Shown one piece after another: positions 1 to 56,390 of a stretch of DNA of 64,000 bases. Every line of letters starts with the position of its first letter. Within the stretch, counting starts at the first letter, position 1. This DNA is from a virus (taxonomy: Duplodnaviria > Heunggongvirae > Uroviricota > Caudoviricetes): IMG/VR virus record IMGVR_UViG_3300018080_000120, one strand, 5' to 3'. Made by a program: the position numbers and the translations under genes. The notes below the pieces were generated by a model. That model was not told the DNA's origin. It ran no database searches and saw only the letters and a program-made list of their open reading frames with translations.

Positions 1-63
1 CGCGCAGGCGATATATGAAAAGCCACAGGTGCGGCTCGAGACCGTATCCATGGGAGGCGCAGT

Positions 64-255
64 ATGATATGTCCGAATTGTCTTCAACGTATTCGTCCGC
101 ACAGCCCAAATCAAAGAACTCTGAGGGGTGTGCCACAACATAAACGATGTCCAGGGCAAACGTCATATCGACAGATGCATCGCCAAAAGGTAACAGGCGA
201 CATCCAACACAAAGTCCGAGAGGCAAATAGACTCGGTGTTGCACTGGCAGCATAA
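64..255 (+). CDS. small ORF of uncertain reality in leader region
   Basis: ORF track only; no clear RBS; may be spurious or C-terminal fragment context. Confidence 0.2.
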   Translation: MICPNCLQRIRPHSPNQRTLRGVPQHKRCPGQTSYRQMHRQKVTGDIQHKVREANRLGVALAA

Positions 256-267
256 GAAAGGAGTCAA

Positions 268-789
268 ATGATGACGAAAGCAGAAGCAAAGATCGCATTT
301 CTTGAGATGGTGGCAAATACCCTCTTTTCGGTACTAAGAGGGTCGCAACTACCACCAATAGTTCATCCAAACATCAATAATGCAAACCATTTGGCACCGG
401 GGCGAATGTTCAAAGACGGAACGCTGAGGGGTTATGATATCGACGTGATATCCGATGGCGTGATAACGCAATTGAGATTTATTGAGCAAAACCCCAACAA
501 AACGGACGCATTCGGTAACCGGAGCACATATGCGATGATGGCATTGCAAGGACATCAAATCGTTTGGGCCATTGATCGCAGCACAAATAGATGGCTGGGC
601 CGGGTTCAGAACGGAAAATGGATTGCAAACGAGCCTCGCGCCTACTCGAACAGCCCCAAACAGGCGGTTGATCAGCATGGCTTGCAATATACCCAGTCAA
701 ACGGTCAGTGGGTAGACGAGTTGCAAAACATCGCACCAGGAGACATTCCGGGACATATTGAGCAGAGTGCCGAAGTTGAAGGTATATGA
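268..789 (+). CDS. hypothetical protein
   Basis: 173-aa ORF, RBS aaggag ~7 nt upstream, co-oriented operon. Confidence 0.55.
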   Translation: MMTKAEAKIAFLEMVANTLFSVLRGSQLPPIVHPNINNANHLAPGRMFKDGTLRGYDIDVISDGVITQLRFIEQNPNKTDAFGNRSTYAMMALQGHQIVWAIDRSTNRWLGRVQNGKWIANEPRAYSNSPKQAVDQHGLQYTQSNGQWVDELQNIAPGDIPGHIEQSAEVEGI

Positions 790-1127
790 AATTTGTAAAC
801 CAATACCATGGGATAGTCGAAAAGGTATCTCCGGATAAAACGAAGATTACCCTTCGACTTCCCAAAGGTGGACTTATCGAAGCTAAAAACGAAGGATTCG
901 AGGTTGGTGACCAAGTCTGCTTTTTAATGGATCCACTCGGGCGAAAAGTGATAAAAGTCACGCCAAAGATACTTGCGGATGTGCAGGTATTGATTGGCTC
1001 GAGTCCCGAACTACAAGGTGCTTTAATGGAAGTGCTGGAGGATGTGCGAGACGACGAGGATTTTAACGAGTTCGAATACGAACTAACGGAGTGGGAGGAG
1101 AACCATGGAGAATGTATTGTGGAGTAA
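786..1127 (+). CDS. hypothetical protein
   Basis: ATGA start/stop overlap with upstream gene; acidic C-terminus. Confidence 0.5.
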   Translation: MKFVNQYHGIVEKVSPDKTKITLRLPKGGLIEAKNEGFEVGDQVCFLMDPLGRKVIKVTPKILADVQVLIGSSPELQGALMEVLEDVRDDEDFNEFEYELTEWEENHGECIVE

Positions 1128-1680
1128 CCTGGGGACTGACGAATCCGGTGAGTTCGATAAATTCTATAATTATATGGAAAAGTCGGCAGAACCGGACTTG
1201 AAGTCTCTATTCACGCCGATACCAGTAGAAGACCCATATCTCCGAAAGGTGCTGATTGATGCTGCGGAGAAAATGGAGACTTTTCTGGAAAATCGAGCGA
1301 TCGACATAGGATATCGCGCCAGTCAGACGAGTGAACTCGGAATTGAGACTGACTATTTTCTGATGTCCAAAGGAGAGAATAAACCAATCATCCATGTGTT
1401 TAAATATCGCATGGATATGGAAAAATGGGCTTCCTGGTTGAAAGCTCATACTTACTTGGCGAATGAAGGCCCGTTCACAATAAGAAATCGGGGTATCCGG
1501 TTAACCTTCACAGGTGACAGCGCGGAAAAATACTCCAAACTGACGACAAGTATAAGTCGGAAAGGGTCTTCGTCGGTAGGGGATGACAACTTCCTCGACC
1601 TGAGAAATGCACCACCAACATTCGTTGTCCATAGGGACTATTTCAATAAAAAGGAATGGGTGGTTACTCAGGCAGGATAA
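1105..1680 (+). CDS. hypothetical protein
   Basis: 191-aa ORF overlapping upstream gene end (translational coupling). Confidence 0.5.
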   Translation: MENVLWSNLGTDESGEFDKFYNYMEKSAEPDLKSLFTPIPVEDPYLRKVLIDAAEKMETFLENRAIDIGYRASQTSELGIETDYFLMSKGENKPIIHVFKYRMDMEKWASWLKAHTYLANEGPFTIRNRGIRLTFTGDSAEKYSKLTTSISRKGSSSVGDDNFLDLRNAPPTFVVHRDYFNKKEWVVTQAG

Positions 1681-1846
1681 GAAATCCGCATTGCGGCTCA
1701 TCCCCGAATCTTTGGATGCTTTGCATAGTACCAAGGCCGTGCCGAGTGCCGATCGGTGCGTCGAGATACACTGGGTGCAAAGTAGGAAGGCTAATCATCA
1801 ATAACATTCCCAGACAAACATATTATTTCTTACGGAGGTATTTACT

Positions 1847-2503
1847 ATGGGAGAAATGCTATTTATCGGTACAGATTTAAGAGTTGCGAAAGACCCTGTT
1901 TTCATCCCCGGCGGAACCATTGAGGCCCCCAATCCGGACAAGAATCATGCCATGGTCACCCTGATGACCAACCGGAAGGTCGGAGATAAAGAGTATACAG
2001 ATGCCATCTCCGCCCATTTCTACGGAAAGTCCGCGTCCGTTGCTGCCAATTACCTGTGCAAGGGTAAACAGTGCAATCTTCGCGGTCGGCTTCAAGACTA
2101 TACCCAGGACACCGGCGTCGTAGACGCAAGTGGGAAGAAGATCATATACCGCAAGGTAGAGGTCATCGCCACGAAATTGGAACTGCTTGCAGACCCGATT
2201 TCCAAGATGGATGCAAACATCGCCGCCCTAAAACAGGCCGGTAGGCTCGTTGGTGACGTTACCGCCAAAGACATTCTGCCCCAGAAACACTCCATGGTCG
2301 AGTTCAATCCCGCAGCCGCCGCTTCCACAGGGAAGTATGCGCATGCGACAGTTTGGACGAAGGACCGGGGAACCTGGCAGGCCAATGGTCAGGCCGTTTC
2401 CACGCCCGCAGCCGGGGCTGACGAAGTCGCCCAGCTGAAGGCCCGCTTGGCCGCTCTGGAAGCCAATGGTGCCGCCGCTGGTAGTACCGCCTCGCCGTTC
2501 TAA
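1847..2503 (+). CDS. SSB-like OB-fold single-stranded DNA-binding protein (divergent, Ala/Gly-rich tail ending SPF)
   Basis: N-terminal pattern MLFIGT.LRVAKDP...TLMTNRK...YRKVEVIATKLELL resembles SSB OB fold; flexible A/G-rich C-tail; strong RBS ggaggt. Confidence 0.55.
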   Translation: MGEMLFIGTDLRVAKDPVFIPGGTIEAPNPDKNHAMVTLMTNRKVGDKEYTDAISAHFYGKSASVAANYLCKGKQCNLRGRLQDYTQDTGVVDASGKKIIYRKVEVIATKLELLADPISKMDANIAALKQAGRLVGDVTAKDILPQKHSMVEFNPAAAASTGKYAHATVWTKDRGTWQANGQAVSTPAAGADEVAQLKARLAALEANGAAAGSTASPF

Positions 2504-2544
2504 TACGGTCTGTGCTGAACCTTGGGGATACCCTGCCCATTATG

Positions 2545-2570
2545 GGTGGGGTTCCCCACCTTTTTTTGTT
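2545..2570 (+). terminator. rho-independent terminator
   Basis: GGTGGGG/CCCCACC stem followed by TTTTTTTGTTTTT directly after SSB-like gene stop. Confidence 0.6.
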
Positions 2571-2629
2571 TTTCTACCGAAAAATTTTACTATCTATCCC
2601 GTATTAATTTACTATATAGGAGTTAATCT

Positions 2630-3118
2630 ATGTTAAGTTCCGACTTTCCTTTTGCCGGATTTGTCTTAATTGTAGGATGCATTGTCTTTATTTGCTTGTG
2701 TCCTATTGTTGGAGTTCCGGTTATCTTGACCTGGCTGGTTTTGAACAATAAGGACCGGTTTCATGCGTTATTCTGTGAACCTAATGGCGGCGTTTCTATG
2801 GTTAGAACTTCTAAATTAAAGGAAATGGAGCAAGAATTGGAAGAAAAGGACGAATTTGTTGACCCCGTGGCGGAAAATTATAAGAAAGAGGTCGAAAGTC
2901 TGCTAAAACCGGGGTTTGATCAAAGCCCGGAGTGGCAAAAAGAGACGGAAGAGCTGCGAAAACAGCTAAAAGAAAGGCAAGAAAAGGCTAAAAAAGAAGA
3001 GAAGGAAGATTTAGAGCGCGAAAAGCGTGAAAAAGACGGATATACCGAAGAAATTAAGCAAAAAGTCGATGAAAAAGTCCAAAAAGTGCACTCTTCGTGG
3101 GTCTCCGGTTATTTTTAG
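2630..3118 (+). CDS. membrane-anchored protein with K/E-rich coiled-coil tail
   Basis: N-terminal hydrophobic segment then long lysine/glutamate-rich region. Confidence 0.55.
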   Translation: MLSSDFPFAGFVLIVGCIVFICLCPIVGVPVILTWLVLNNKDRFHALFCEPNGGVSMVRTSKLKEMEQELEEKDEFVDPVAENYKKEVESLLKPGFDQSPEWQKETEELRKQLKERQEKAKKEEKEDLEREKREKDGYTEEIKQKVDEKVQKVHSSWVSGYF

Positions 3119-3279
3119 TAGTGAAATTCCGATTTTTGAGCAATTTTGACGATTTTTTCAAGCAAAATACGATTTTTCGTCAAAAAACCGAATTCTTTTG
3201 AACAAAACGCTAATTTTTCGAAAATTTTGCTATTTTTAGCAAGCAAAATGACCATTTTTTCGATTTTGGGGGTAAAAAA
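3119..3279 (+). repeat. intergenic tandem array of ~7 degenerate ~20-22 bp units (GATTTTTY...CAAAAW)
   Basis: visible repeats: cgatttttgagcaattttgac / gattttttcaagcaaaatac / gatttttcgtcaaaaaacc / gaattcttttgaacaaaacgc / taatttttcgaaaattttgc / tatttttagcaagcaaaatgacc / attttttcgattttggg. Confidence 0.6.
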
Positions 3280-3281
3280 CC

Positions 3282-4034
3282 ATGGAAATATCAGCTCTGT
3301 CAAATAACCCATATGTTGTCAATATTTTTCCTGAACCAGAGAAAATTTCTGATATCAATGATGTGATCCAGAGCATTTTACCCTCGAACGACCTATTTGA
3401 CACAATCAGCGCCATTCAGAACGCTCAGATGGAACTTTTCCGCATTTCGGCGGGGGTAGATTATGGCAAAGCCAGTAGCCTGGATTATGTAAAATACCTG
3501 CAACAAGGAAATCCAAGAATAAAGGCTCTGGCCATGTCTATCGTTAGTCCGTGGGATAGTAATGACACCAAAATGTATAAACTGGAACAATGGGTCATTA
3601 ATAATATTGATTATGTATCTGACTGGGAAAATTATGGTCAGGATGAATACTGGGCTTACCCGACTCAAACTCTGGATCGCATGTCGGGGGATTGTGAAGA
3701 TGGCGCATTTTTACTCCATTCTCTTGCTCTTGCTGCTGGTGTTCCAGCTGAGAGGCTTCGAACTTATGGAGGTCTCGTTTTTAATCCCTATGGAACTCAA
3801 GCCGCTGGCCATGGTTGGACTTCATATCAAAGAGAATCAGATGATGAATGGATCGTAATGGACTGGTGTTATTGGCCAGAAGATTCTCCCGTCGGGGAAA
3901 GAACCCCTATGACGGAAGCTTTAAAATATATCGATGATTTCTTCTTCGTAAGTGCAAAAGAAGGAACAGTAGAAACTCCTTACTCAAATAGAGTGAGATA
4001 CGCAATGGGAGATCTCGTCAATATTTTCGCCTAA
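3282..4034 (+). CDS. transglutaminase-like cysteine protease/transglutaminase superfamily protein
   Basis: GDCEDGAFLLHSLALAAGVPAERLRTYGG (Cys core), GHGW (His), WIVMDW (Asp) = Cys-His-Asp triad of TGase-like fold. Confidence 0.7.
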   Translation: MEISALSNNPYVVNIFPEPEKISDINDVIQSILPSNDLFDTISAIQNAQMELFRISAGVDYGKASSLDYVKYLQQGNPRIKALAMSIVSPWDSNDTKMYKLEQWVINNIDYVSDWENYGQDEYWAYPTQTLDRMSGDCEDGAFLLHSLALAAGVPAERLRTYGGLVFNPYGTQAAGHGWTSYQRESDDEWIVMDWCYWPEDSPVGERTPMTEALKYIDDFFFVSAKEGTVETPYSNRVRYAMGDLVNIFA

Positions 4035-4264
4035 AATCGAAAAAGTGTAACAGTTTAGGGAATGTTCAGCCACCCCCCTATAAAATGGCGACCTCGATAT
4101 AACCCGGTAAAATTTGGTCTCCCCGGCTGGCAAAACCACATAATATATAATAATATCATAAACATACAAAATCAGGTATTTTACCATGAAAATAATACTT
4201 ACATTATGGCTGGTATTTACATTATACCATATAATATTAATATATATACATTAGGAGATAAACC

Positions 4265-4390
4265 ATGAAAGATAAAACAAGGGAAAATATAACCATAGGA
4301 TTTATTATTGGTACGGCTATGGTTATAATATTACTATATTTCTTTGGCGATATGGTGGTAGATTGGTTGTTCCACAAACTAATGTGCTGA
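4265..4390 (+). CDS. small hydrophobic protein (41 aa)
   Basis: RBS ttaggagataaacc-ATG; one TM segment; below ORF-track size cutoff. Confidence 0.35.
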   Translation: MKDKTRENITIGFIIGTAMVIILLYFFGDMVVDWLFHKLMC

Positions 4391-4649
4391 ACACCATATA
4401 AATGTAAAATACCCTATAGTTTATAGGAGGATAGAATGATCTGGAAATTATTCGATTATACTTGCATTTGCGTCATGGACCGATATATCGACGGCTGGTA
4501 TTGTTTGGTTGTCGATTATTGGCTTTGTTACATGTTTTATTGATCTATGGGAGAATAGACCATGAAAAAAGTAATGTTGTATGTTTGTATATATGTGGTT
4601 TCGTTGATGGCTTGCACGGCTTTATTTATATGGTTGGATATACTATGAT

Positions 4650-5133
4650 TTATATTTATATATATATGCCGATCAAATTTTCAGTTCCGCAAAAAATTTT
4701 CGATCGATAAGTTTGGTCGGCCGATCGATGAGAATGTGTGGTCGATCGATACCCTGACGCATACATATATATAAGTAAATATATCATAATAAAATACAAT
4801 ATCAATAACTTAAACCATTACAAACCATACTCAAACCCTACATTTCTAATACTACATATCAAATTGTCCAATCATATCTGGCGTTTATCCTATTACACTT
4901 CTATATATACCCCGTATTCTTTTACTCTACTCTATTATATAAAATAAGTAAATAAATCAAGTAGTTGAATAGGTCAAAAATGGTGTAAAAATACCATAAT
5001 AATATCAACTATTTGGCAGACGATAAATATACCATAAATAAGGCGAAAATACCGAAAAATAGGCATACATATATAAATATATATTAATAGATATTTAAAC
5101 TATTGCCATTATTATGTAAAAGGAGATAACTTT
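4650..5133. promoter_or_regulatory. AT-rich non-coding region with iterons (candidate origin/regulatory region)
   Basis: three CGATCGAT copies at ~4702, ~4723, ~4743 (~21 bp spacing); AAATACCATAA-like repeats at ~4985-5060; no convincing ORF. Confidence 0.4.
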
Positions 5134-5301
5134 ATGACAGAATGGTTGAATAGATTAACGATTCAATTAGCTGGAATCTACGACTATCTCGTGAGCTTAC
5201 CAAAGGAAATATATCACTGGTTTATATCTCTAAGCCCATTGGCTCAGATAGGATTAGTATTATTAATTATTGCTGCCATCATAATAATGCTTGACGAATA
5301 G
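5134..5301 (+). CDS. small membrane protein (55 aa)
   Basis: RBS aaaggagataac; hydrophobic C-terminal half; in-frame 168 nt. Confidence 0.4.
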   Translation: MTEWLNRLTIQLAGIYDYLVSLPKEIYHWFISLSPLAQIGLVLLIIAAIIIMLDE

Positions 5302-5335
5302 TCACTAATAAATAAAAAGGAGGTTTTATTCTATT

Positions 5336-5788
5336 ATGAAATTATTTAGTATTATACTTTGTATAAGTTTACTTTACATGATGATTCACCCCGCGGCGAT
5401 CGCAGCAGAGGGGAGCACCATTTTCTGTTTCGAATGTAGTTATCCATGTTGGAGTGATGCAAAAGGCAATCATGCCACTTCCAAAAAATATCCTATGGAA
5501 TTCAAATTCGTATGGAAACTGGGAGAACGTAATGCCACAATGATAGGAAACGTTGGAACAGCTGAAGTGGCTGCCATACAAAACGCTTGTGGTATCACGT
5601 TTGTTGAGATAACAAATACTGGGAATGTCACAGCAACCACGATTAATCTCGAACAAATAAAAGAAATTAAAAAGAATGGCATCTTACAATATGTAATAAC
5701 TGAATCAGTTCACAGCCGTAACACTATAATGCCAGATGGATATCAAACATGGTGCCAATATTACGGAACTTGTGTTATTAAAAGATAA
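5336..5788 (+). CDS. secreted Cys-containing protein with signal peptide
   Basis: N-terminal MKLFSIILCISLLYMMIHPAAIAA signal; RBS aaaaggagg. Confidence 0.55.
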   Translation: MKLFSIILCISLLYMMIHPAAIAAEGSTIFCFECSYPCWSDAKGNHATSKKYPMEFKFVWKLGERNATMIGNVGTAEVAAIQNACGITFVEITNTGNVTATTINLEQIKEIKKNGILQYVITESVHSRNTIMPDGYQTWCQYYGTCVIKR

Positions 5789-5888
5789 GAATGCAAAAAA
5801 ACATAGGTATATTAATAATAGTGATATTTATTATCCTATGGATAATTGAAGGATAAACTATTGCCATATTTGGAGAAAAGAGGAAAAT

Positions 5889-6217: not shown

Positions 6218-6255
6218 TTTACCAGAAAACATTTTACCCCGCGGCGATCCGCGGG
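6218..6255 (+). promoter_or_regulatory. family-1 upstream element E1 (TTTACCAGAAAACATTTTACC box + CCCCGCGGCGATCCGCGGG hairpin)
   Basis: perfect 7-bp GC stem, CGAT loop, ends 11 nt before ATG 6267 within SD. Confidence 0.7.
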
Positions 6256-6266
6256 AGGAGGAGAAA

Positions 6267-6674
6267 ATGAGCTTAAAAAAATGGATAATAGTAGATTTTG
6301 ACTGCTATCATGGTTGTAATAATCCAGAATTTAATCCAGGATGTGATGAGTCTTCAATCCGAATCAAAATTGATGCAGATTTAAGCAAGGAATACGATTT
6401 GTTCAAAAAGTACATGAAGATACCTTGTCCTCGCTGTGGTAAAGTTGGCGAGCAGAAGAGAAGTGGTTGGTGGGAAGTATCAAATAATGGCAAAATGAAA
6501 GACTATGATGGGTCTTTCTTCACATCAGCACATGTCCAAGATTACACAATAGAAATGATGGAAGCAAAAATCCAAGAAATTGATCATTCAATAGAGGCGC
6601 TAAAGAGGGAAAGAAAGGCTTTTGAAAAGAAAAAGGAGTTAGTCACGGAATGGGTAGAAATTCATAGAAATTAA
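6267..6674 (+). CDS. hypothetical Cys-containing protein (paralog of 12190..12597)
   Basis: 135 aa; about 60% identity to 12190 product (MSLKKWIIVDFDCYHGCNNPEF...PCPRCGKVGE). Confidence 0.65.
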   Translation: MSLKKWIIVDFDCYHGCNNPEFNPGCDESSIRIKIDADLSKEYDLFKKYMKIPCPRCGKVGEQKRSGWWEVSNNGKMKDYDGSFFTSAHVQDYTIEMMEAKIQEIDHSIEALKRERKAFEKKKELVTEWVEIHRN

Positions 6675-8861: not shown

Positions 8862-8890
8862 AAGGGCATAAATTGTATCTATGTATGTAT

Positions 8891-16269: not shown

Positions 16270-16824
16270 ATGAAAAACGTGCTTGAAGATTTTGAAAATG
16301 GTGAAGTATTCAATCTAAAAAAAGAAGAATCTCTATTTGGCCCTTCTGATACCCCCGCCGTGATCCTGCATAATCCCAAATATCCTCATAATGTTGGTGC
16401 AGTAGTTCGGGCTTTATCTTGCTTTGGTGGTAAAACCTTGGTTTTTACAGGCAACCGGGTTTCTTTAACTCCGCCGGAAAATAAGGGGTATCGCTTACCG
16501 AGAGAGGAAAGAATGAAGGGATACAAAGATGTCACCATGATCAATGATGACTACCCTTTCAATCGCTTTTCTAAAAATGTTATTCCGGTCGCAATAGAAG
16601 TAAGGCGTAATTCTACACCATTGCCTATTTTCGAGCACCCTGAAAATGCTGTCTATGTGTTTGGGCCTGAAGATGGTAGCATTCCACAGGTTATGCTCCA
16701 ACATTGTCAGAGATTCGTGGTGATTCCGTCCAAACACTGCTTAAATTTGGCAGCGGCGGTGAACGTTATTCTTTATGACAGAATATCAAAACTTAACATA
16801 CTTATAGAGGAGGACATAAGATGA
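16270..16824 (+). CDS. SpoU/TrmH-family (SPOUT) RNA 2'-O-methyltransferase
   Basis: PHNVGAVVRALSCFG, VYVFGPEDGSIP, VVIPSKHCLNLAAAVNVILYDR = SpoU motifs 1-3; start chosen after upstream zinc-ribbon gene (ORF track extends to 16078). Confidence 0.75.
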   Translation: MKNVLEDFENGEVFNLKKEESLFGPSDTPAVILHNPKYPHNVGAVVRALSCFGGKTLVFTGNRVSLTPPENKGYRLPREERMKGYKDVTMINDDYPFNRFSKNVIPVAIEVRRNSTPLPIFEHPENAVYVFGPEDGSIPQVMLQHCQRFVVIPSKHCLNLAAAVNVILYDRISKLNILIEEDIR

Positions 16825-17051
16825 GTGACAATGAGAAATTGATAGAAGAAGGAATGGAAACTTTGCGTTCTATGGCAAAATCAGCGGCTAGTAGCGTAGC
16901 CCCTTCTGCTGAAAGATTGAAAGCCGTCGCAGAATCGATTGACTGGTCAGTAGTTAGAACTCTCGAACTTGACTGGAAAACCGTGGAAGGCGAGCTTGTA
17001 CCAGTGCTCAAAATTGAAACCTATCCAAATGGAGAAGAAGTAGGATCGTAA
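16821..17051 (+). CDS. hypothetical protein
   Basis: 76 aa, ATGA overlap. Confidence 0.5.
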   Translation: MSDNEKLIEEGMETLRSMAKSAASSVAPSAERLKAVAESIDWSVVRTLELDWKTVEGELVPVLKIETYPNGEEVGS

Positions 17052-17052
17052 A

Positions 17053-17289
17053 ATGGGAAAAGTAACCCCATATGGTCTACAGTCGTGGAATTTGTGGAAC
17101 ATTTTCACAGGCCGAAAAAAATATACCATTTGTTGTGGGAAATGTCACCATGTTTACGAAGATAAACTAAACTTTCATTTAAATGACACCGCTTCCTCTA
17201 TTTGCCCAGGCTGTGGAAGCCAAAATGTGTGGTCTCATTCCAAATGGGCAGCTTACATGGAGCATGAACTGGAAAAAAGGAGCAAATAA
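17053..17289 (+). CDS. zinc-ribbon protein
   Basis: CCGKCHH...CPGCGS. Confidence 0.5.
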   Translation: MGKVTPYGLQSWNLWNIFTGRKKYTICCGKCHHVYEDKLNFHLNDTASSICPGCGSQNVWSHSKWAAYMEHELEKRSK

Positions 17290-17438
17290 TGAACAGATAC
17301 TTCATAGAGACGGACGGCAACACAGGCGTTCTGAGTGCAAAAAATATCATAGAAGCTCTTGAGCTCTTTGAGAAGTATTTCGGGCCTCTTGGGGATTCTG
17401 TGAGCGTGAAGACCGTCTACAATCAAAGGGGGGAATAA
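17289..17438 (+). CDS. small protein (49 aa)
   Basis: SD aaaaggagcaaata; fills gap exactly to next ATG. Confidence 0.4.
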   Translation: MNRYFIETDGNTGVLSAKNIIEALELFEKYFGPLGDSVSVKTVYNQRGE

Positions 17439-17720
17439 ATGTCCTGTATATTAAAAGATATGATCGAGCGGTATGTAAATGATCGAATACCTCAACTTCA
17501 GGCTGAAATAAAAGAGGTAACCACCAAACTTACAGAAACAACTATTGAATTGAGAACTGCAAAAAGTCAGATTGACCTTCTTAATCACCATCAAAAGATA
17601 AATACTAAAGAGAGGGACGAAATAGCCAAGGGATCTAAATGGTTAAAAATTAGTATATCTTTTTCTATTCTGGGAAATATTGCTCTTATTATAGTTTCAC
17701 TTTACCTTTATTTCTGCTGA
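17439..17720 (+). CDS. coiled-coil protein with C-terminal TM anchor
   Basis: 93 aa. Confidence 0.5.
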   Translation: MSCILKDMIERYVNDRIPQLQAEIKEVTTKLTETTIELRTAKSQIDLLNHHQKINTKERDEIAKGSKWLKISISFSILGNIALIIVSLYLYFC

Positions 17721-30377: not shown

Positions 30378-30572
30378 ATGGAAATACCAAAGAGACCATT
30401 AACATTTGAAGAAGTACTTGAGAAATATGGCAACACTCAAGTATACTTTTGCTACAATTGCTGGACGAGTTCTACTCTTACGAAATCATTTGGGCTGCCA
30501 AAATGCTATAACTGTGGCATGGAGATGTCCGTGATTACGTTGAAAGAGCTGGCTGAAAGGATGAGCAAATAA
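30378..30572 (+). CDS. zinc-ribbon protein
   Basis: CYNCW...CYNCG. Confidence 0.5.
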   Translation: MEIPKRPLTFEEVLEKYGNTQVYFCYNCWTSSTLTKSFGLPKCYNCGMEMSVITLKELAERMSK

Positions 30573-30928
30573 TGGACCCTATTGAACTCGCTTTAGGTGA
30601 TAATCGGGATCCCGAGAATGATAAAATAAAGGTAGAAGTTATAGAATTTACTGATCGCAAAATAGGCATGCGGATTGGTAGAACTATAAAGACTGACGAT
30701 GTAAAATATGAGTTCGTTAAATTCGATCTGATGTTTGATGGGACAATTCCAGATGGTTCAGATCATTTTCGAGCCTATGATCAAGTGTTTCGGGATCTTT
30801 TTAAGGAGATGTCTATTCGTGAAGCGGTTGTTCGGGCCATTGGAAATAACAGCAAAGTCATGGGCCAAGTGGTCGAATTATTGAAAAAGGCCATCAATCT
30901 GGAGGAAATAAATGCCAGTAGCGTGTAG
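30572..30928 (+). CDS. hypothetical protein
   Basis: 118 aa. Confidence 0.5.
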   Translation: MDPIELALGDNRDPENDKIKVEVIEFTDRKIGMRIGRTIKTDDVKYEFVKFDLMFDGTIPDGSDHFRAYDQVFRDLFKEMSIREAVVRAIGNNSKVMGQVVELLKKAINLEEINASSV

Positions 30929-31085
30929 TAAATGTGGAACTGTAATATTATTGTCGGAATCAGTGATATGTGCTGAGTGTGGCACGGTTTATTGCAAGAA
31001 CTGTGCTAAAGACCTGAATCTTTTTGTGAGTGAGGACGGGAGTTATTCGGTGGATCACTGTTCGAACTGCGGCATTGCCGCTTAG
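30912..31085 (+). CDS. zinc-ribbon small protein (57 aa)
   Basis: CSKCG...CAECG...CSNCG. Confidence 0.4.
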   Translation: MPVACSKCGTVILLSESVICAECGTVYCKNCAKDLNLFVSEDGSYSVDHCSNCGIAA

Positions 31086-31118
31086 AGAAGCTAGATCTAA
31101 AAGAAAGGAGGGACATTC

Positions 31119-31538
31119 ATGGTTAGATTGCTCAATTTTGGGATGGGTATCCCGGCATGGATAAATTTGCTTGTTATCTTAGTCGCTGTTGCGCTAGCTG
31201 TATGGATTGGATATGCAATATATGCATTGATTCTTGATCCGAACAACTGGAAGCTACGGGTAAAGCCCATTGTCTTTCGAGTTTTAATACTCGCCGTTTT
31301 TCTATGGGCCACTCTGACGGCTTTTGGTCCAGGTACCCCAGCGCCGCCGATGCCTTCAGACATTGGTGCAATGAAGCTTATCGAAAAAGCTCCAGATGAA
31401 AAGTCTCTTTCTGAAATTCAGAAAGAAGCTGCTGAGAAACGTGATGAATTTCTCAAGGCACAAGACAGAGGCTTTCAAAAGGAAAAAGAGGAAGCCGACA
31501 AGTACATCGATGAAGCACTCAAAAAATATGCCGACTAA
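31119..31538 (+). CDS. membrane protein with coiled-coil tail
   Basis: two TM helices then K/E-rich tail. Confidence 0.55.
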   Translation: MVRLLNFGMGIPAWINLLVILVAVALAVWIGYAIYALILDPNNWKLRVKPIVFRVLILAVFLWATLTAFGPGTPAPPMPSDIGAMKLIEKAPDEKSLSEIQKEAAEKRDEFLKAQDRGFQKEKEEADKYIDEALKKYAD

Positions 31539-31579
31539 TATAGTTGGTAAATAAAAAAAGAGAAGGAGAAAAGAAGACT

Positions 31580-32461
31580 ATGAAAAGTATCAAAAGATTT
31601 TTATCCGCAATTGTAGTTACCGCATGTATGTTTCTTGTAATGGGATGTACCGAGCGCGTTCCGCCTGGGTACGTTGGTATGGTTATGGAGCCCGACGGTC
31701 TGACAGGTATCGTCTGTCAGCCTGGTAATCACCAATGTTACAATCGTGACAAAATGGCCCTTATTGAGATGGTTGAAGTCACCAAGACAGAAAAGATGGC
31801 AGTTTTGTGTACCGACGATCTCAATATGAAGTTTGACCTGAAGATTCGTTCAAGGCTAAAAACGCAGGATAGCAAAAGCGTTATGGCCGTGTTGAATCGG
31901 CAAGGCTCAAAGATCAAGTGGGACGGTGCCTCCGGTATTTTACCGTTTGATGCACTATATGTGACTTATGTTCAGGGGCCGGCCCGGTCCATCGCAAGGG
32001 GCATAGTATCAAAATATGAAACGACTGCCATCCGAGGCGCTCGAAAAGAAATCGAGAAATCGATAGCCACAGAATTGCTGGAGGCCGTCAAAGGAACTCC
32101 TGTTGAAATCACGATGGTTGTGACCTCCAATCTGGATTACCCCGACGTTATAACTAAAGCCATGGAAAAGAAGAGAACCCGGGAGATCGAGATCCAAGAG
32201 GAAAAGGCCAAACAGGCCATGGAATTGCTGAAGGCTGATAACCGGCTCAAGGTTGCCAATAAGTTGAAGGTTACGAGAACCGCTGAGGCGGAAGCAGAAG
32301 CCGTGTACAATCGCATCATGGGCAAATCCCTGACTGATAGGTACCTCAAGTTGAGAGAGGTCGAGGCCAGACTCGAGCTGTACAAGAATATCAAGGATAA
32401 GGACAAGATCGTCATTACAGACGGTGGAACGGCCACACCCTTGGTAAATCTCGGTAAATAA
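31580..32461 (+). CDS. lipoprotein
   Basis: MKSIKRFLSAIVVTACMFLVMGC lipobox. Confidence 0.55.
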   Translation: MKSIKRFLSAIVVTACMFLVMGCTERVPPGYVGMVMEPDGLTGIVCQPGNHQCYNRDKMALIEMVEVTKTEKMAVLCTDDLNMKFDLKIRSRLKTQDSKSVMAVLNRQGSKIKWDGASGILPFDALYVTYVQGPARSIARGIVSKYETTAIRGARKEIEKSIATELLEAVKGTPVEITMVVTSNLDYPDVITKAMEKKRTREIEIQEEKAKQAMELLKADNRLKVANKLKVTRTAEAEAEAVYNRIMGKSLTDRYLKLREVEARLELYKNIKDKDKIVITDGGTATPLVNLGK

Positions 32462-36208: not shown

Positions 36209-36375
36209 TGGGCTTGTATAATGCAGTAGATCCGATCGATTGCCCAGTTTACCGGGGACAGTGTGAGGATTGTGGACTTAGCATCTTTGAGATGCCAGAT
36301 GGAACGTTAAGGGTGAAAGGAACCCCTCCACCTGACCATCTTTGTACTTTATCAAGAGAGGATCAAGAAAAATGA
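36208..36375 (+). CDS. small Cys-containing protein
   Basis: track ORF 36187..36375; start ambiguous (36187 or 36208). Confidence 0.4.
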   Translation: MGLYNAVDPIDCPVYRGQCEDCGLSIFEMPDGTLRVKGTPPPDHLCTLSREDQEK

Positions 36376-53090: not shown

Positions 53091-56000
53091 TTGGGAGAAA
53101 ACATTCAAGGCAGGACAGAGAGTTTGGTTAATGACATAAAATGTGAATTTAACCGACAAAAGGAATATCTTAAGTCCAATGCTGAAATGGATCTTCAAGT
53201 CGCTGATGATCTGCTGAAGATAACTTTTAGCGACGGTAATATCTCTCAAACTCTTTCTATTCCTCTTCCTACTATAAATGAGAAAGGACTTAATCTCCTA
53301 AACAATAACGATGTAACCAGAGTGATGTGTGATTATTGGTTGGAGAGAGAACAAAAACGCTTGAATTATCACGATGTTATCCGAGTGATATTGTGTGGTG
53401 AAATAAATGAAGTAATGCCACATAGGTCAAGTATGGGATCTCTTCTGAGTCGAGTAATAAAAGCATTTAGTCAGAACGCAGTACCATATATGGTCAATTC
53501 TATTCAGCGACTCGTCAGTGAAATTGTCAACGTAATGCCGCTTCATGAAACGGACATGAATAGTTGGGCAATGAATCATCGATTGATAATTATAGACCCA
53601 TTATTTAACGCCCTAACTGATCCAAATGACAGGCTTGAATATCAAGTCGAAAAGAACAAAAAGTATTATAAAAAGTTTGGATGGAGTACAATCGGCCTAT
53701 CTGAAGGAGTCTTGTCCGATAAAAACTTCATTCTAACAACTGATCTTAGAAAACTGACTCCATATGGATGGTATCATAATCCGCAGAGAAATCTTTATTC
53801 CACTCTTGGAATGAAAGGTGATGAGCTTCCAAAAGTAAGATCTCGATCTGAACACGAGCTCATCAAAAGAGGTATTCAACGAAAAGGATGGAATCTTGTC
53901 ACTGCAATAATTGACACTCCATTGGTATTTGAAGACCAAATTCTGGTTGACAAAAGACATGCTGGTCTTTTTCATACTGTGGAAAAAAGATTTGTCGTTT
54001 ATGGCGATAAAATAATGATTAAAAAGGGCGACAAAATTTCTACAGACGGCGTTCTCGGGATATCTAATGACAATGAAAAAGTTCGGATGACATTGAAATG
54101 CGATGAAGCTGAAATTACAGATGTCAAGAAAGAACTGGCAAATGTCGGCGGCGAAGAAGTGGTAACGACTGTTATTAAGGTCAAAGGTAAAAGATATTTC
54201 CGGGATGGCACCAAGTTTTCCAATCTTCATGGAAATAAAGGAATTGTTCGTATGGTAGATCTCGGTTATGCAATAGACCCGAGAGATGGAAAGAAAGTCC
54301 CGATTGATGTTATGATTTCTGCCACATCCATTAACAAAAGAGCCAACTTCGGTCAAATACTGGAAGCTCTGTCCAGCAATCTTATTCCTGAGGATGCAGA
54401 GTATTTGATAATAGAAGATGATCATCAAACTAATAGAACAAAAGTGGAAAATGCTCTGGAAACTGCTGGATTTCCAAAAGATGGTACGTGGATGATTGAT
54501 ACTTATTGCGGTGAACATTCTGCAATAGTTGGCAAAATGTTTTGGGGAGTGACCAAAGATCCAGAAGACCAATTGTGGGAGGGTAATCGAACTCTTGTTA
54601 CAGATAATCGAGAATTGAGAACTTCTGGGCTCAAATTTAGCCATGTTGAATTTAAGGCTCTTACGACTCGGTTTGGCCCTCAAAACGCTGTCACTAAAGA
54701 AATACTTTCGCATGCTCAAGGCATGGAAGTTCTTCACGATGAGATAAAGATTTTGAAATCTGCTCATGGAGAACTGCCAGACAACCTTCCTGAAATAGAT
54801 GCTTCTAATGTGGATTTTGTAGATAATAGCAAAGGGATATTTCACACCGCGACGGAAGTTGCTGGAACAGTTGTGGATGAGAGCTTCATGCCTGATGGAT
54901 TCATTCTTAAATTACCTTGTGATTTTCAGGCAATTGTGAATAAAAAGAACCCTGACCATTTCACTTGTGGAATGCCTCAGGAAATAATTGACCCTGAAGA
55001 AAAGAATGTATATCAATATAATAAAATATTTATACCAAATGCTTTGCTTCGTAGATGTTGGAGGCATCCATCTGGTAAATGGGGACTGAGTGTAACGGGG
55101 TCCCTTATAAATCGAATTATAGAATGGTGCCATCGATTCAAAGCAAGCGGTGATGTAAATGACCAAGTGGTCTTAATGAGAGTAATTGCCAGCTATTTTC
55201 GCAATATTGCAAAAATGATGGGGTCCAAAACTGGCGAATTGAGTACTTATGGAATGGCCGTCCGATATCCTTATTCTACTCGAGCAACTGCTGCACTATC
55301 TGATAATTTGCCAAGAGACACAATCGAAATTCATAGGGACATGGCGAACCTATTGAAGGTTAAGACTGGTGATATAGTCATAGCTGAAAGATTTCCCTGT
55401 CTTGGATTTATGTCCATTCGACCACAGTTTGTTAGAGTAACAGACGATCCGCAATGCAAATATGTGATAAGAGTGAGTGGAAATAGTCTGGTATCCATGA
55501 ATCTGGATTTTGATGGAGATACTCTATTTCTCGCAAGTCTTCATACTCCACAAGCAAAAGAAGCGATGCGAAAGGAATTGACTAATTCGAATACATTGTG
55601 CAAACAAGTAATCGAACAAATGAATGCAAAGAAAGTGCCTCAAACAAAGGAAATGAATCTGGATGGCTTCGAAATTCGAGTCTTTCCGCCGCCAACTAAT
55701 GAAGAACATGCTCAAATAGTGAGAAATGCGACTGGTGTGAAAAGCCATACCGGGCCGGTTATCGCACTTGCTTATAATCTCATGCGGATAGTAGAAAGAA
55801 ATGTGCCTTATTCTGATAATACTCAGCATGTTAATCTTGAGGTTCTTCTTGACTTCCTTGGTAATACTGTTTTTAAACAGAAACATGGTATTAAATCCTT
55901 GCAGGAAGAGGCAACAGATGCCATATGCTTGGCCGATGCGGAAAGAATGGTTGAGCTGGGATTTGAAAGAAGCCCAAGTGAATTATTGTGCAGATTGATT

Positions 56001-56390
56001 AAAGAAGAAGCGAAGTCGATTGGAGTAAAGGACCTAAAATGGTATTATAAAACAGCAAAGGAAAGAGGCTGGAGTAAGATAATAAATCTTATCGTCAGAA
56101 AGAAGAATAAAGTATACTTTGCTACTCGATCTACTCTCGGCCCCTTTAATCTGCTGGAGCATCTAAAAGTAGGTCCCGCTGATTTGCCAAGTTTTATGTT
56201 GAGTTTGATTCTAAGAAAAGAGACAGAAGATATCGAAGAAAAGCTCAATCTAAGGAAATTCGAAAGAGCGGAAAAGCATCGAGAAGCTGTGCTTTCTGCA
56301 TTCAAGGGCGTCTATAGAATAATGTCGGACTATATTGATAATATGATGACGCCTAAACCACAAGCAATGAGCGGCTCTTGCTCGGCCTAG
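53091..56390 (+). CDS. single-polypeptide two-barrel DNA-dependent RNA polymerase (fused beta-like and beta-prime-like catalytic modules; TTG start)
   Basis: beta-type: KFSNLHGNKGIVRMV and PIDVMISATSINKRANFGQILEAL (cf. GRHGNKGV...[22 protein letters not shown]); beta-prime-type: ERFPCLGFMSIRPQ and MNLDFDGDTLFLASLHT (cf. NADFDGDQM); SD aaggagg. Confidence 0.8.
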   Translation: MGENIQGRTESLVNDIKCEFNRQKEYLKSNAEMDLQVADDLLKITFSDGNISQTLSIPLPTINEKGLNLLNNNDVTRVMCDYWLEREQKRLNYHDVIRVILCGEINEVMPHRSSMGSLLSRVIKAFSQNAVPYMVNSIQRLVSEIVNVMPLHETDMNSWAMNHRLIIIDPLFNALTDPNDRLEYQVEKNKKYYKKFGWSTIGLSEGVLSDKNFILTTDLRKLTPYGWYHNPQRNLYSTLGMKGDELPKVRSRSEHELIKRGIQRKGWNLVTAIIDTPLVFEDQILVDKRHAGLFHTVEKRFVVYGDKIMIKKGDKISTDGVLGISNDNEKVRMTLKCDEAEITDVKKELANVGGEEVVTTVIKVKGKRYFRDGTKFSNLHGNKGIVRMVDLGYAIDPRDGKKVPIDVMISATSINKRANFGQILEALSSNLIPEDAEYLIIEDDHQTNRTKVENALETAGFPKDGTWMIDTYCGEHSAIVGKMFWGVTKDPEDQLWEGNRTLVTDNRELRTSGLKFSHVEFKALTTRFGPQNAVTKEILSHAQGMEVLHDEIKILKSAHGELPDNLPEIDASNVDFVDNSKGIFHTATEVAGTVVDESFMPDGFILKLPCDFQAIVNKKNPDHFTCGMPQEIIDPEEKNVYQYNKIFIPNALLRRCWRHPSGKWGLSVTGSLINRIIEWCHRFKASGDVNDQVVLMRVIASYFRNIAKMMGSKTGELSTYGMAVRYPYSTRATAALSDNLPRDTIEIHRDMANLLKVKTGDIVIAERFPCLGFMSIRPQFVRVTDDPQCKYVIRVSGNSLVSMNLDFDGDTLFLASLHTPQAKEAMRKELTNSNTLCKQVIEQMNAKKVPQTKEMNLDGFEIRVFPPPTNEEHAQIVRNATGVKSHTGPVIALAYNLMRIVERNVPYSDNTQHVNLEVLLDFLGNTVFKQKHGIKSLQEEATDAICLADAERMVELGFERSPSELLCRLIKEEAKSIGVKDLKWYYKTAKERGWSKIINLIVRKKNKVYFATRSTLGPFNLLEHLKVGPADLPSFMLSLILRKETEDIEEKLNLRKFERAEKHREAVLSAFKGVYRIMSDYIDNMMTPKPQAMSGSCSA

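Follow-up and report, generated by a model that had tools for sequence, protein, structure and literature searches.

Positions 4035–5335 of a 64-kb stretch of DNA from an uncultured large phage (IMG/VR record IMGVR_UViG_3300018080_000120; the whole 64,000-nt stretch is referred to here as the window) form an AT-rich island, the core of which (~4640–5133) carries a phased array of short palindromic boxes. Our analysis supports the view that this core is a single-copy, conserved, cis-acting element and a candidate protein-binding array. Its most likely function, which we propose tentatively, would be that of a replication origin made up of iterons and an unwinding element. A transcription switch is nearly as likely, and sequence alone cannot decide between the two. 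An initial annotation of the window had interpreted the island as an origin or a regulatory hub. The presence of a functional cis element is supported, whereas the origin is still a candidate; the hub alternative gains support, because the island and its surroundings combine a promoter-like site (P1) and an operon of micro open reading frames (micro-ORFs), a leftward promoter-like site, downstream promoter-like elements and a hairpin-marked gene cluster.

The lineage is without cultured relatives, and hardly any of its genes can be recognised as serving replication or regulation. For these reasons, the island is the best available handle on how replication starts or how expression is switched. 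If the boxes mark an origin, a 500-bp fragment would provide both a direct assay and a bait for the initiator. If they mark a transcription switch, the border of the hairpin-marked gene cluster would be defined.

The island could be compared with several related contigs. One Logan contig (L001) is identical to window positions 1–5636 and reaches 6.7 kb further left, adding more plus-strand genes, which shows that the island does not lie at the edge of an assembly. L002 represents a 99.8% identical strain, and its contig ends at 4749. The sole independent relative spanning the whole island is L003. Its transglutaminase-like protein is 88% identical to that of the window, where the corresponding gene, encoding a transglutaminase-like cysteine protease, lies directly left of the island (3282–4034). 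In L004, the same protein is 81% identical and the contig spans only the first 450 nt of the island. Conservation of the core was thus assessed in a single pairwise comparison, window versus L003.

The octamer CGATCGAT is found at 4701–4708, 4722–4729 and 4743–4750, a spacing of exactly 21 bp, and just once more in the 64 kb, at 36233, apparently within a small coding frame. Just one other 8-mer in the window likewise forms an equally spaced triple, and no such triple, of any 8-mer, appeared in 100 Markov shuffles. The array is also the sole Tandem Repeats Finder match in the window scoring at least 50 (77% matches, 2.4 copies). The three copies, which had been placed about 21 bp apart at about 4702–4750, were thus correctly recognised in the initial annotation, but the palindrome was not: CGATCGAT itself is non-palindromic. 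The palindromic box is TCGATCGA, which occurs at 4700 and 4742, and the middle box of the window reads CCGATCGA. In L003, all three boxes read TCGATCGA.

With these corrections, the boxes, (T/C)CGATCGA(T), occupy 4700–4708 (box 1), 4721–4729 (box 2) and 4742–4750 (box 3), with no strand assigned. Their counterparts in L003, at 8304, 8325 and 8346, keep the 21-bp spacing. Between the window and L003, 2 of 27 box positions changed compared with 8 of 24 spacer positions (p=0.03). A degenerate box 0 (4670–4677, no strand assigned) reads CGATCAAA in the window and CGATCGTA in L003, and its distance to box 1, which follows downstream, is 31 bp in both. The successive spacings (31, 21 and 21 bp) approximate whole helical turns, which would place all four boxes on the same side of the helix. 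The units have only (G)TCGATCGA(T) in common, the two spacers within the array being ~54% alike by hand count, and each box contains GATC. No other cluster of the box motif is present in the ~70 kb formed by the window and its leftward extension. A lone cluster is more readily reconciled with a unique cis site than with a global regulator. A literature search on TCGATCGA operators returned nothing relevant. As a side observation, the final base of L002 is G where the window has T at 4750, which matches the L003 variant CGATCGAG.

Two AT-rich arms frame the boxes. The left arm (4641–4668) was identified in a repeat search as the inverted-repeat partner of the right arm (4764–4791). The right arm lies within the most conserved non-coding block, an 80-bp segment at 4751–4830; neither the arms nor the block has an assigned strand. 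This block is 7.5% divergent from L003, compared with 31% divergence at third codon positions of the neighbouring gene. When 4740–4830 is compared with those third codon positions, the difference is highly significant (Fisher p=4e-6). By this measure, 4751–4830 is estimated to evolve about four times more slowly than synonymous sites, indicative of strong purifying selection.

The same block holds DNA of exceptionally low duplex stability. The least stable windows of the 64 kb are all in the island, whether 50 bp (starting at 4765 and 5065), 100 bp (4146 and 4765) or 400 bp (4761) are considered, which bears out the earlier description of a very AT-rich tract beside the boxes. The least stable 400-bp window, 4761–5160, is ~4 standard deviations from the mean. 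The least stable 50 bp, taken as a thermodynamic proxy for melting, span 4765–4814 and thus begin 15 bp past box 3.

The arms and boxes together make up a 146-nt element (4640–4785) that folds better than its shuffles on both strands, in the window as well as in L003, with z-scores of -2.6 to -4.0 as RNA and -1.9 to -2.8 as DNA. The inner pairings differ between the window and L003, with no compensatory change. With both strands folding and the inner pairings unlike, the fold is more suggestive of a DNA property than of a conserved RNA.

We also asked whether the core could be coding or could specify a structured RNA. In phage contigs, AT-rich stretches that look non-coding can conceal genuine micro-genes. 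The ORF at 4738–4947 is open in both lineages, but its substitutions relative to L003 are spread evenly over the codon positions (17/14/15), whereas the neighbouring gene used for comparison shows 26/11/78. Its rejection as a gene agrees with the initial annotation. The frame stays open because G-free sequence can form only TAA stops. Likewise rejected were a 36-residue minus-strand ORF (4766–4656), which has substitutions of 6/9/8 by codon position and no ribosome-binding site, and the plus-strand frame that reads the boxes as Ser-Ile-Asp, which has 4/4/3 (hand count on the L003 alignment) and no start codon. The core has no Rfam match at gathering score, no tRNA or tmRNA was found, and the whole 484-nt core folds at a z-score of -1.3 on both strands. 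The core is therefore without coding or structured-RNA signal.

To the right of the boxes, the plus strand is G-poor and C-rich over 200 nt (4751–4950; 9 G versus 44 C). The tract includes a 90-nt G-free run (4776–4865), twice the length of any other in the 64 kb, and the 150 nt from 4781 contain 5 G and 37 C. The GC skew of the tract is -0.76, compared with a window mean of +0.157 (standard deviation 0.136). This departure of ~6.7 standard deviations is the most extreme C-over-G bias in the 64 kb. L003 retains the bias (-0.67) even where its sequence is 54% divergent. Next to this divergent stretch, the 22-mer CAAATTGTCCAATCATATCTGG (4860–4881, no strand assigned) is identical in L003. In the minimum-energy RNA fold of the plus strand, the G-poor tract is unpaired.

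Matches to the IHF consensus WATCAANNNNTTR cluster in the same region: three of the six in the 64 kb are located at 4800, 4955 and 5003, within 216 bp. Two plus-strand sites, both defined purely as consensus matches, are kept in L003, namely TATCAATAACTTA at 4800–4812 and TATCAACTATTTG at 5003–5015, the latter inside the invariant TAATATCAACTATTT (5000–5014). The match at 4800 uses the same bases as the -35 hexamer of a candidate leftward sigma-70-like promoter, a consensus match of 10/12 on the minus strand (4805..4778; TTGATA-16-TATATT with a TG). Transcription from it is predicted to start at ~4771 and to read through the boxes, which would lie at about +21 to +100. The site is the top promoter-like match at homologous positions of the window and L003. 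On the other hand, matches of at least 10/12 number 11 on the plus and 14 on the minus strand, being no commoner on the coding strand, and ~4% of shuffled cores reach 10/12 plus the TG. The leftward promoter candidate is therefore suggestive only.

The remaining repeats of the island proved less informative. AAATACC-type repeats had been reported at about 4985–5060, and they are indeed present on the plus strand (4989 and 5047, with AAATATACC at 5025). However, the enrichment is weak (17 copies in the window versus 10 expected) and every island copy is altered in L003, so that we rejected them as a second functional repeat family. ATATCAA and TATAAGTA were rejected as island motifs, as they are enriched genome-wide, on both strands and inside genes. 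For TATAAGTA, there are 13 copies in the window, on both strands, versus 2.5 expected; those on the plus strand at 8888 and 9391 are intergenic and belong to a longer common motif, TATAAGTATNTATTACTAA.

If the core is an origin, the three good TCGATCGA boxes and the degenerate one, all on one helix face, would be bound co-operatively by a dimeric sequence-specific protein. Binding would then open the adjacent 4760–4815 tract; a host protein that bends DNA, and transcription initiated at the leftward promoter-like site, may assist. In this scheme, the whole of ~4640–5133 would act as one unit, with the boxes framed by AT-rich inverted arms and adjoining what is predicted to be the most easily melted DNA of the window. 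We favour this reading because of the phased, unique boxes, the meltable DNA next to them, the purifying selection, the clustered IHF-type matches and the presence of GATC in each box.

The arrangement can be compared with iteron origins such as ori-lambda, pSC101, F oriS, P1 oriR and R6K gamma. These are single-copy and contain three to five initiator sites; IHF-type and GATC sites are common. In ori-lambda, pSC101, F oriS and P1 oriR, several binding sites about two helical turns apart are combined with an AT-rich tract of ~50 bp. By analogy, the element described here would resemble them in its helically phased sites on one face, its adjoining ~50-bp AT-rich tract and its single-copy nature. 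It differs in that the AT-rich arms lie on both sides of the boxes and are inverted, and in that neither an adjacent nor an enclosing initiator gene, nor DnaA boxes, nor a skew signal was recognised. A looser analogy may be drawn with the lactococcal c2/sk1-type origins, which lie in the main non-coding AT-rich region and contain direct and inverted repeats and a promoter making a non-coding transcript. The island would likewise be a main non-coding AT-rich region with repeats and a promoter-like site. Unlike it, the c2/sk1 origins lie between divergent early and late clusters in small genomes, and there is no sequence similarity. Their function was shown by plasmid replication assays, whereas the island is known from its sequence alone.

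Several observations weigh against an origin. Cumulative GC skew, followed over ~70 kb from 6.7 kb left of the window start as far as the right end of the window (59 kb of this lying right of the island), climbs steadily, with a local dip at the island; the inflection that had been suggested as a check is thus not found within the ~70 kb covered. The island contains no DnaA box with one mismatch or fewer. Searches of Pfam, PHROGs and PDB sequences with the genes flanking the island and the 6.7 kb upstream recognised no initiator, helicase loader, primase, polymerase or HU/IHF gene. For the rest of the window, we relied on a Pfam tally of 110 scanned ORFs, considering the 25 most-matched of 28 families, and most neighbours have no assigned function. 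Replication-related matches comprise two SSB-like genes and one distant DEAD/ResIII helicase. The conserved part of each 21-bp unit is an 8–10 bp palindromic core, compared with 17–22 bp in classical iterons. The leftward promoter-like site coincides both with the DNA of low stability and with the IHF-like match at 4800, and would account for the two without an origin. The evidence for conservation comes from one comparison of two independent core sequences. L024, a distant relative that has many genes in common in a different order, lacks the island after the same transglutaminase-like gene.

The left part of the island turned out to be less empty than its description as a 1.3-kb coding-poor stretch implied. 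Truly non-coding are 4035–4185 and 4649–5133, whereas 4186–4648 is taken up by four tiny hydrophobic ORFs, each with a ribosome-binding site and with counterparts in L003 and L004. Just past the stop codon of the transglutaminase-like gene lies a 40-nt block, TCGAAAAAGTGTAACAGTTTAGGGAATGTTCAGCCACCCC (4037–4076, plus strand), which is unique in the window and nearly invariant across the window, L003 and L004. The flanks of this block are either unalignable or carry insertions of 130 nt and ~340 nt. A plus-strand candidate sigma-70-like promoter, P1 (4127–4154; CTGGCA-16-AATAAT, with TATAAT at 4146–4151), is a consensus match located upstream of the micro-ORF operon, and its TATAAT is kept at the homologous place in L003 and L004.

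All four micro-ORFs are on the plus strand. Micro-ORF 1 (4186–4254) would encode a hydrophobic peptide of 22 residues, MKIILTLWLVFTLYHIILIYIH, and its homologues in L003 and L004 show synonymous changes. Micro-ORF 2 (4265–4390; 41 residues, hydrophobic) has a good ribosome-binding site and is a gene call on L001–L004; its substitutions relative to L003 (9/2/16 by codon position) are of the coding type. Compared with its L003 homologue, micro-ORF 3 (4436–4543; 35 residues as read) carries a one-base frameshift; the frame corresponding to that of L003 is open at 4455–4565 and overlaps the next start codon. Since the same sequence is found in three assemblies (window, L001 and L002), this would be a real pseudogene or a recoding site. 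Micro-ORF 4 (4562–4648; 28 residues, hydrophobic) has a ribosome-binding site, and an ORF of similar size and hydrophobicity occupies the same place in L003. Only the ORFs at 4265 and 5134 had been considered credible. Both are indeed gene calls on L001, but those at 4186, 4436 and 4562 should be added.

On the right, the first gene past the core is a plus-strand ORF for a 55-residue membrane-type protein (5134–5301), which is equipped with a good ribosome-binding site. Its start codon is preceded, at a distance of ~30 nt, by a plus-strand promoter-like site (5088–5115) containing ACTATTGCCAT (5099–5109); ATTGCCAT is kept in L003. There are just two copies of ACTATTGCCAT; the second, an exact one at 5857, is again located ~30 nt before a start codon (5889). 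Further right, a hairpin motif, CCCGCGG-CGAT-CCGCGGG, is present in eight copies compared with 0.06 expected. All of them are on the plus strand and between 5390 and 12625, and seven of the eight are directly 5′ of a ribosome-binding site. Conceivable roles of the motif are those of a hairpin-type promoter, RNA processing site or translational operator. Because all of its copies lie to the right of the island, the island forms the left border of a distinct gene cluster. Within this cluster, the exact or near-exact hairpin copies at 6218, 7511 and 11917 have TTTACCAGAAAACATTTTAC just before them. The genes at 6267 and 12190 start identically (ATGAGCTTAAAAAAATGGATAATAGTAGATT, MSLKKWIIVD), each with the hairpin motif upstream, and are apparently paralogues.

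With these flanks in mind, a transcription switch or insulator at a module boundary ranks close behind an origin. The boxes would then be operators for a repressor-type dimer, and palindromic 8-bp boxes are typical of dimeric repressors. The dimer would control the leftward promoter at 4805..4778, which would fire against the genome-wide direction of transcription. The resulting non-coding transcript would cross the boxes into the 3′ end of the micro-ORF operon and act as antisense RNA or by collision with rightward polymerases, with box occupancy determining whether transcription from upstream can continue into the following gene cluster. Consistent with this model, the top promoter-like match is at the same place in both lineages, and the conserved 4751–4830 block spans roughly -60 to +20 of the candidate promoter. 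The low stability, the IHF-like match at 4800 and how far the conserved block extends can all be accounted for by one leftward promoter with downstream operators. The surroundings also look like a regulatory boundary: a promoter-like site and the micro-ORF operon are on the left, the ACTATTGCCAT promoter-like motif precedes two genes on the right, and the over-represented hairpin motif indicates a differently regulated cluster just rightward. Moreover, GC content, which is 45–48% from ~2.7 kb left of the window start to ~3100, drops to ~38% around the island and rightward of it. However, no gene lies downstream of the leftward promoter, promoter matches of such quality are common (see above), and one would expect a large-phage regulator to act at more than one cluster of targets, whereas no other was seen in the ~70 kb. 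There is also no adjacent regulator gene. The flanking genes encode the tiny membrane peptides, the 55-residue membrane protein and a 150-residue protein, the N-terminus of which resembles a signal peptide; none of them has a DNA-binding domain match. The closest analogues would be tripartite operators of temperate phages (lambda OR/OL type), in which sites at 21–24 bp spacing are bound co-operatively by dimers. Like these, the array comprises three partly palindromic sites that abut AT-rich promoter-like DNA at a transcription-unit boundary. Unlike in lambda, the boxes have a core of 8 rather than 17 bp and lie downstream of the only strong promoter-like site rather than between two divergent promoters, no repressor or Cro-like gene flanks them, and neither an integrase nor a lysogeny module could be recognised among the genes of the window. 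An arrangement between divergent blocks, as initially annotated, does not exist here, because all credible genes, from 6.7 kb left of the window through its end, are on the plus strand. A further idea, which we consider unlikely, is that a lone promoter directed against all genes primes or licenses opening at the arm-framed box array. The element would then represent a type of symmetric origin or switch that is not known from phages, and the G-free tract would be an unstructured nucleic-acid platform, such as a helicase or Rho loading zone or an RNA decoy.

Other explanations address parts of the core or give it a different role. The G-poor tract at 4751–4950 might be a Rho-utilisation site ending rightward micro-ORF transcripts, a proposal that concerns the tract only and is compatible with either an origin or a switch; although held with low confidence, it accounts best for the tract. 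The tract resembles sites such as lambda tR1 in being a long, C-rich, G-poor and unstructured untranslated stretch after the last gene of an operon. Its strong skew, its G-free run, the bias retained in divergent L003 sequence and the lack of pairing in the plus-strand fold all agree with this, as does its start ~100 nt past the last stop codon of the operon (4648), where no intrinsic terminator was found. Composition is, however, the sole evidence. The C content is modest (~22%), several blocks within the 200 nt are conserved in sequence beyond composition, and the phage appears to encode its own RNA polymerase, so that the host enzyme may not be the one transcribing the tract. A minus-strand small RNA of ~120 nt, from ~4771 to ~4650, in which the AT-rich arms pair and boxes 3 and 2 as well as boxes 1 and 0 form stems, seems improbable. 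It is true that the minus strand of 4640–4772 folds well (z-scores of -3.3 in the window and -4.0 in L003), that the 5′ arm of the stem begins at the start predicted from the leftward promoter and that a hairpin between boxes 3 and 2 is predicted in both lineages. Yet the plus strand is nearly equal (-2.6 and -2.9), as expected for any inverted repeat in DNA, and the differing inner pairings show no compensatory change. Stems require complementarity, not four palindrome copies at exact two-turn spacing, and a terminator, an Rfam match and a notable fold of the complete core are all lacking.

A genome end, concatemer junction or packaging signal, by analogy with T7-type ends, the GATC-box/IHF layout of P1 pac or the T5 injection-stop region, is equally hard to favour and slightly more improbable. 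In this reading, the boundary of a terminal repeat or boxes bound by terminase would reside in the one large non-coding region of a phage whose genes all share a strand. The co-directional genes and the four GATC-containing boxes beside IHF-consensus matches would suit it, and four independent assemblies break in or near the island (L002 at 4749, L004 at ~4390, L003 at ~5150 and L001 at 5636). In addition, six of the seven differences between the window and L002 fall within 4367–4686, and the island appears to be a hot spot of both strain variation and assembly breaks. But the contig ends are scattered over four different places instead of coinciding at a single terminus, neither the window contig nor L001 is interrupted here, and AT-rich, strain-variable DNA breaks short-read assemblies trivially. 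P1 pac shares with the array the clustering of short GATC-containing boxes beside an IHF or IHF-like site. In P1, however, two box clusters flank the IHF and cleavage sites within a terminase gene, whereas here there is one cluster, with no second GATC-box set beyond the IHF-like site, and no terminase family among the 25 most-matched Pfam families, nearby or elsewhere in the window. Finally, the array could be a functionless relic of a heptad-repeat coding sequence. Repeats with a 21-bp period in public data are often coding heptads, and most such TCGATCGA arrays in metagenomes encode seven-residue repeats. We nevertheless find this explanation hardly credible, given that no frame has either a start codon or a codon-position bias (4/4/3, 6/9/8 and 17/14/15), that the boxes are more conserved than the spacers and that the adjoining block is under strong purifying selection. 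The box arrays recovered in public scans do not qualify as analogues; for the most part, they consist of coding heptads in high-GC sequence, perfect tandem repeats or IDRF heptad peptides of a Bacillus-like type. Two of them, L028 (141–344) and L107 (110–240), are 21-bp TCGATCGA arrays beside a NERD-domain gene on Bacillus-like contigs, with IDRF or IDRL every seven residues.

Searches for further relatives of the island covered several collections. A metagenome scan with the box pattern returned at least 119 loci, with none related to the island among the matches listed. IMG/VR scans with flanking proteins and conserved DNA found nothing related to the island, GTDB genome scans gave no homologue of it, and the sequenced-phage collection contained no DNA match to the window in either near or distant searches. 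With two downstream proteins as queries, homologue searches returned only the query itself, and neighbouring proteins compared with PDB sequences gave no informative match. The transglutaminase-like gene was also considered as an anchor for finding more islands and was rejected, as its homologues are bacterial or, in L024, island-free. This gene has ~200 homologues at 45–57% identity. Those at ~55% identity are found in bacterial contexts (L005, L025 and L026) or in the rearranged distant phage L024, and L025 and L026 are Deltaproteobacteria-type contigs. Because some homologues are in clearly bacterial contexts, this distribution suggests that the gene may have been acquired from a host-like bacterium and provides a hint to the host range.

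Among the genes of the window are those for RtcB, a CCA-adding enzyme, an Rnl2-type RNA ligase, NAD-salvage enzymes and the two SSB-like proteins. An ORF of 1,099 residues (53091–56390) matches both Rpb2 domain 6 (beta-type) and Rpb1 domain 2 (beta-prime-type). Judging from these domains, it would be a fused, minimal RNA polymerase of the multisubunit type; tblastn found no relative of this protein among sequenced phages.

The region left of the island has peculiarities of its own. From L001 position 4000 to window position 3100, a block of ~6 kb has 45–48% GC and near-zero GC skew, whereas elsewhere the genome has ~38% GC and a skew of +0.15. The block contains an SSB-like gene and several proteins with no assigned function. 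The 163-bp gap upstream of the transglutaminase-like gene (3119–3281) is occupied by a second periodic array of about seven 20-bp units, CGATTTTT..GCAAAAT, with exact CGATTTTT copies at 3130, 3150 and 3170. Its A/T tracts are phased every ~10 bp, and the pattern is kept in L003 (6390–6540) and L004 (1330–1480), which suggests curved DNA or another binding array. Still further left, in a 320-nt gap upstream of the window, direct copies of CCCGGGCAAGATGTGGTA (L001 5148–5165 and 5378–5395) flank a small zinc-ribbon-like ORF.

The lineage as a whole is mosaic, as can be deduced from L147 (Logan SRR21285571), a 99.5% identical strain. It lacks 1.8 kb at 30479–32287, corresponding to three genes, one of them Band-7/lipoprotein-like. 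Leftward of 17639, moreover, its identity to the window (16349–17639) first drops to 88% and the sequences then become unalignable.

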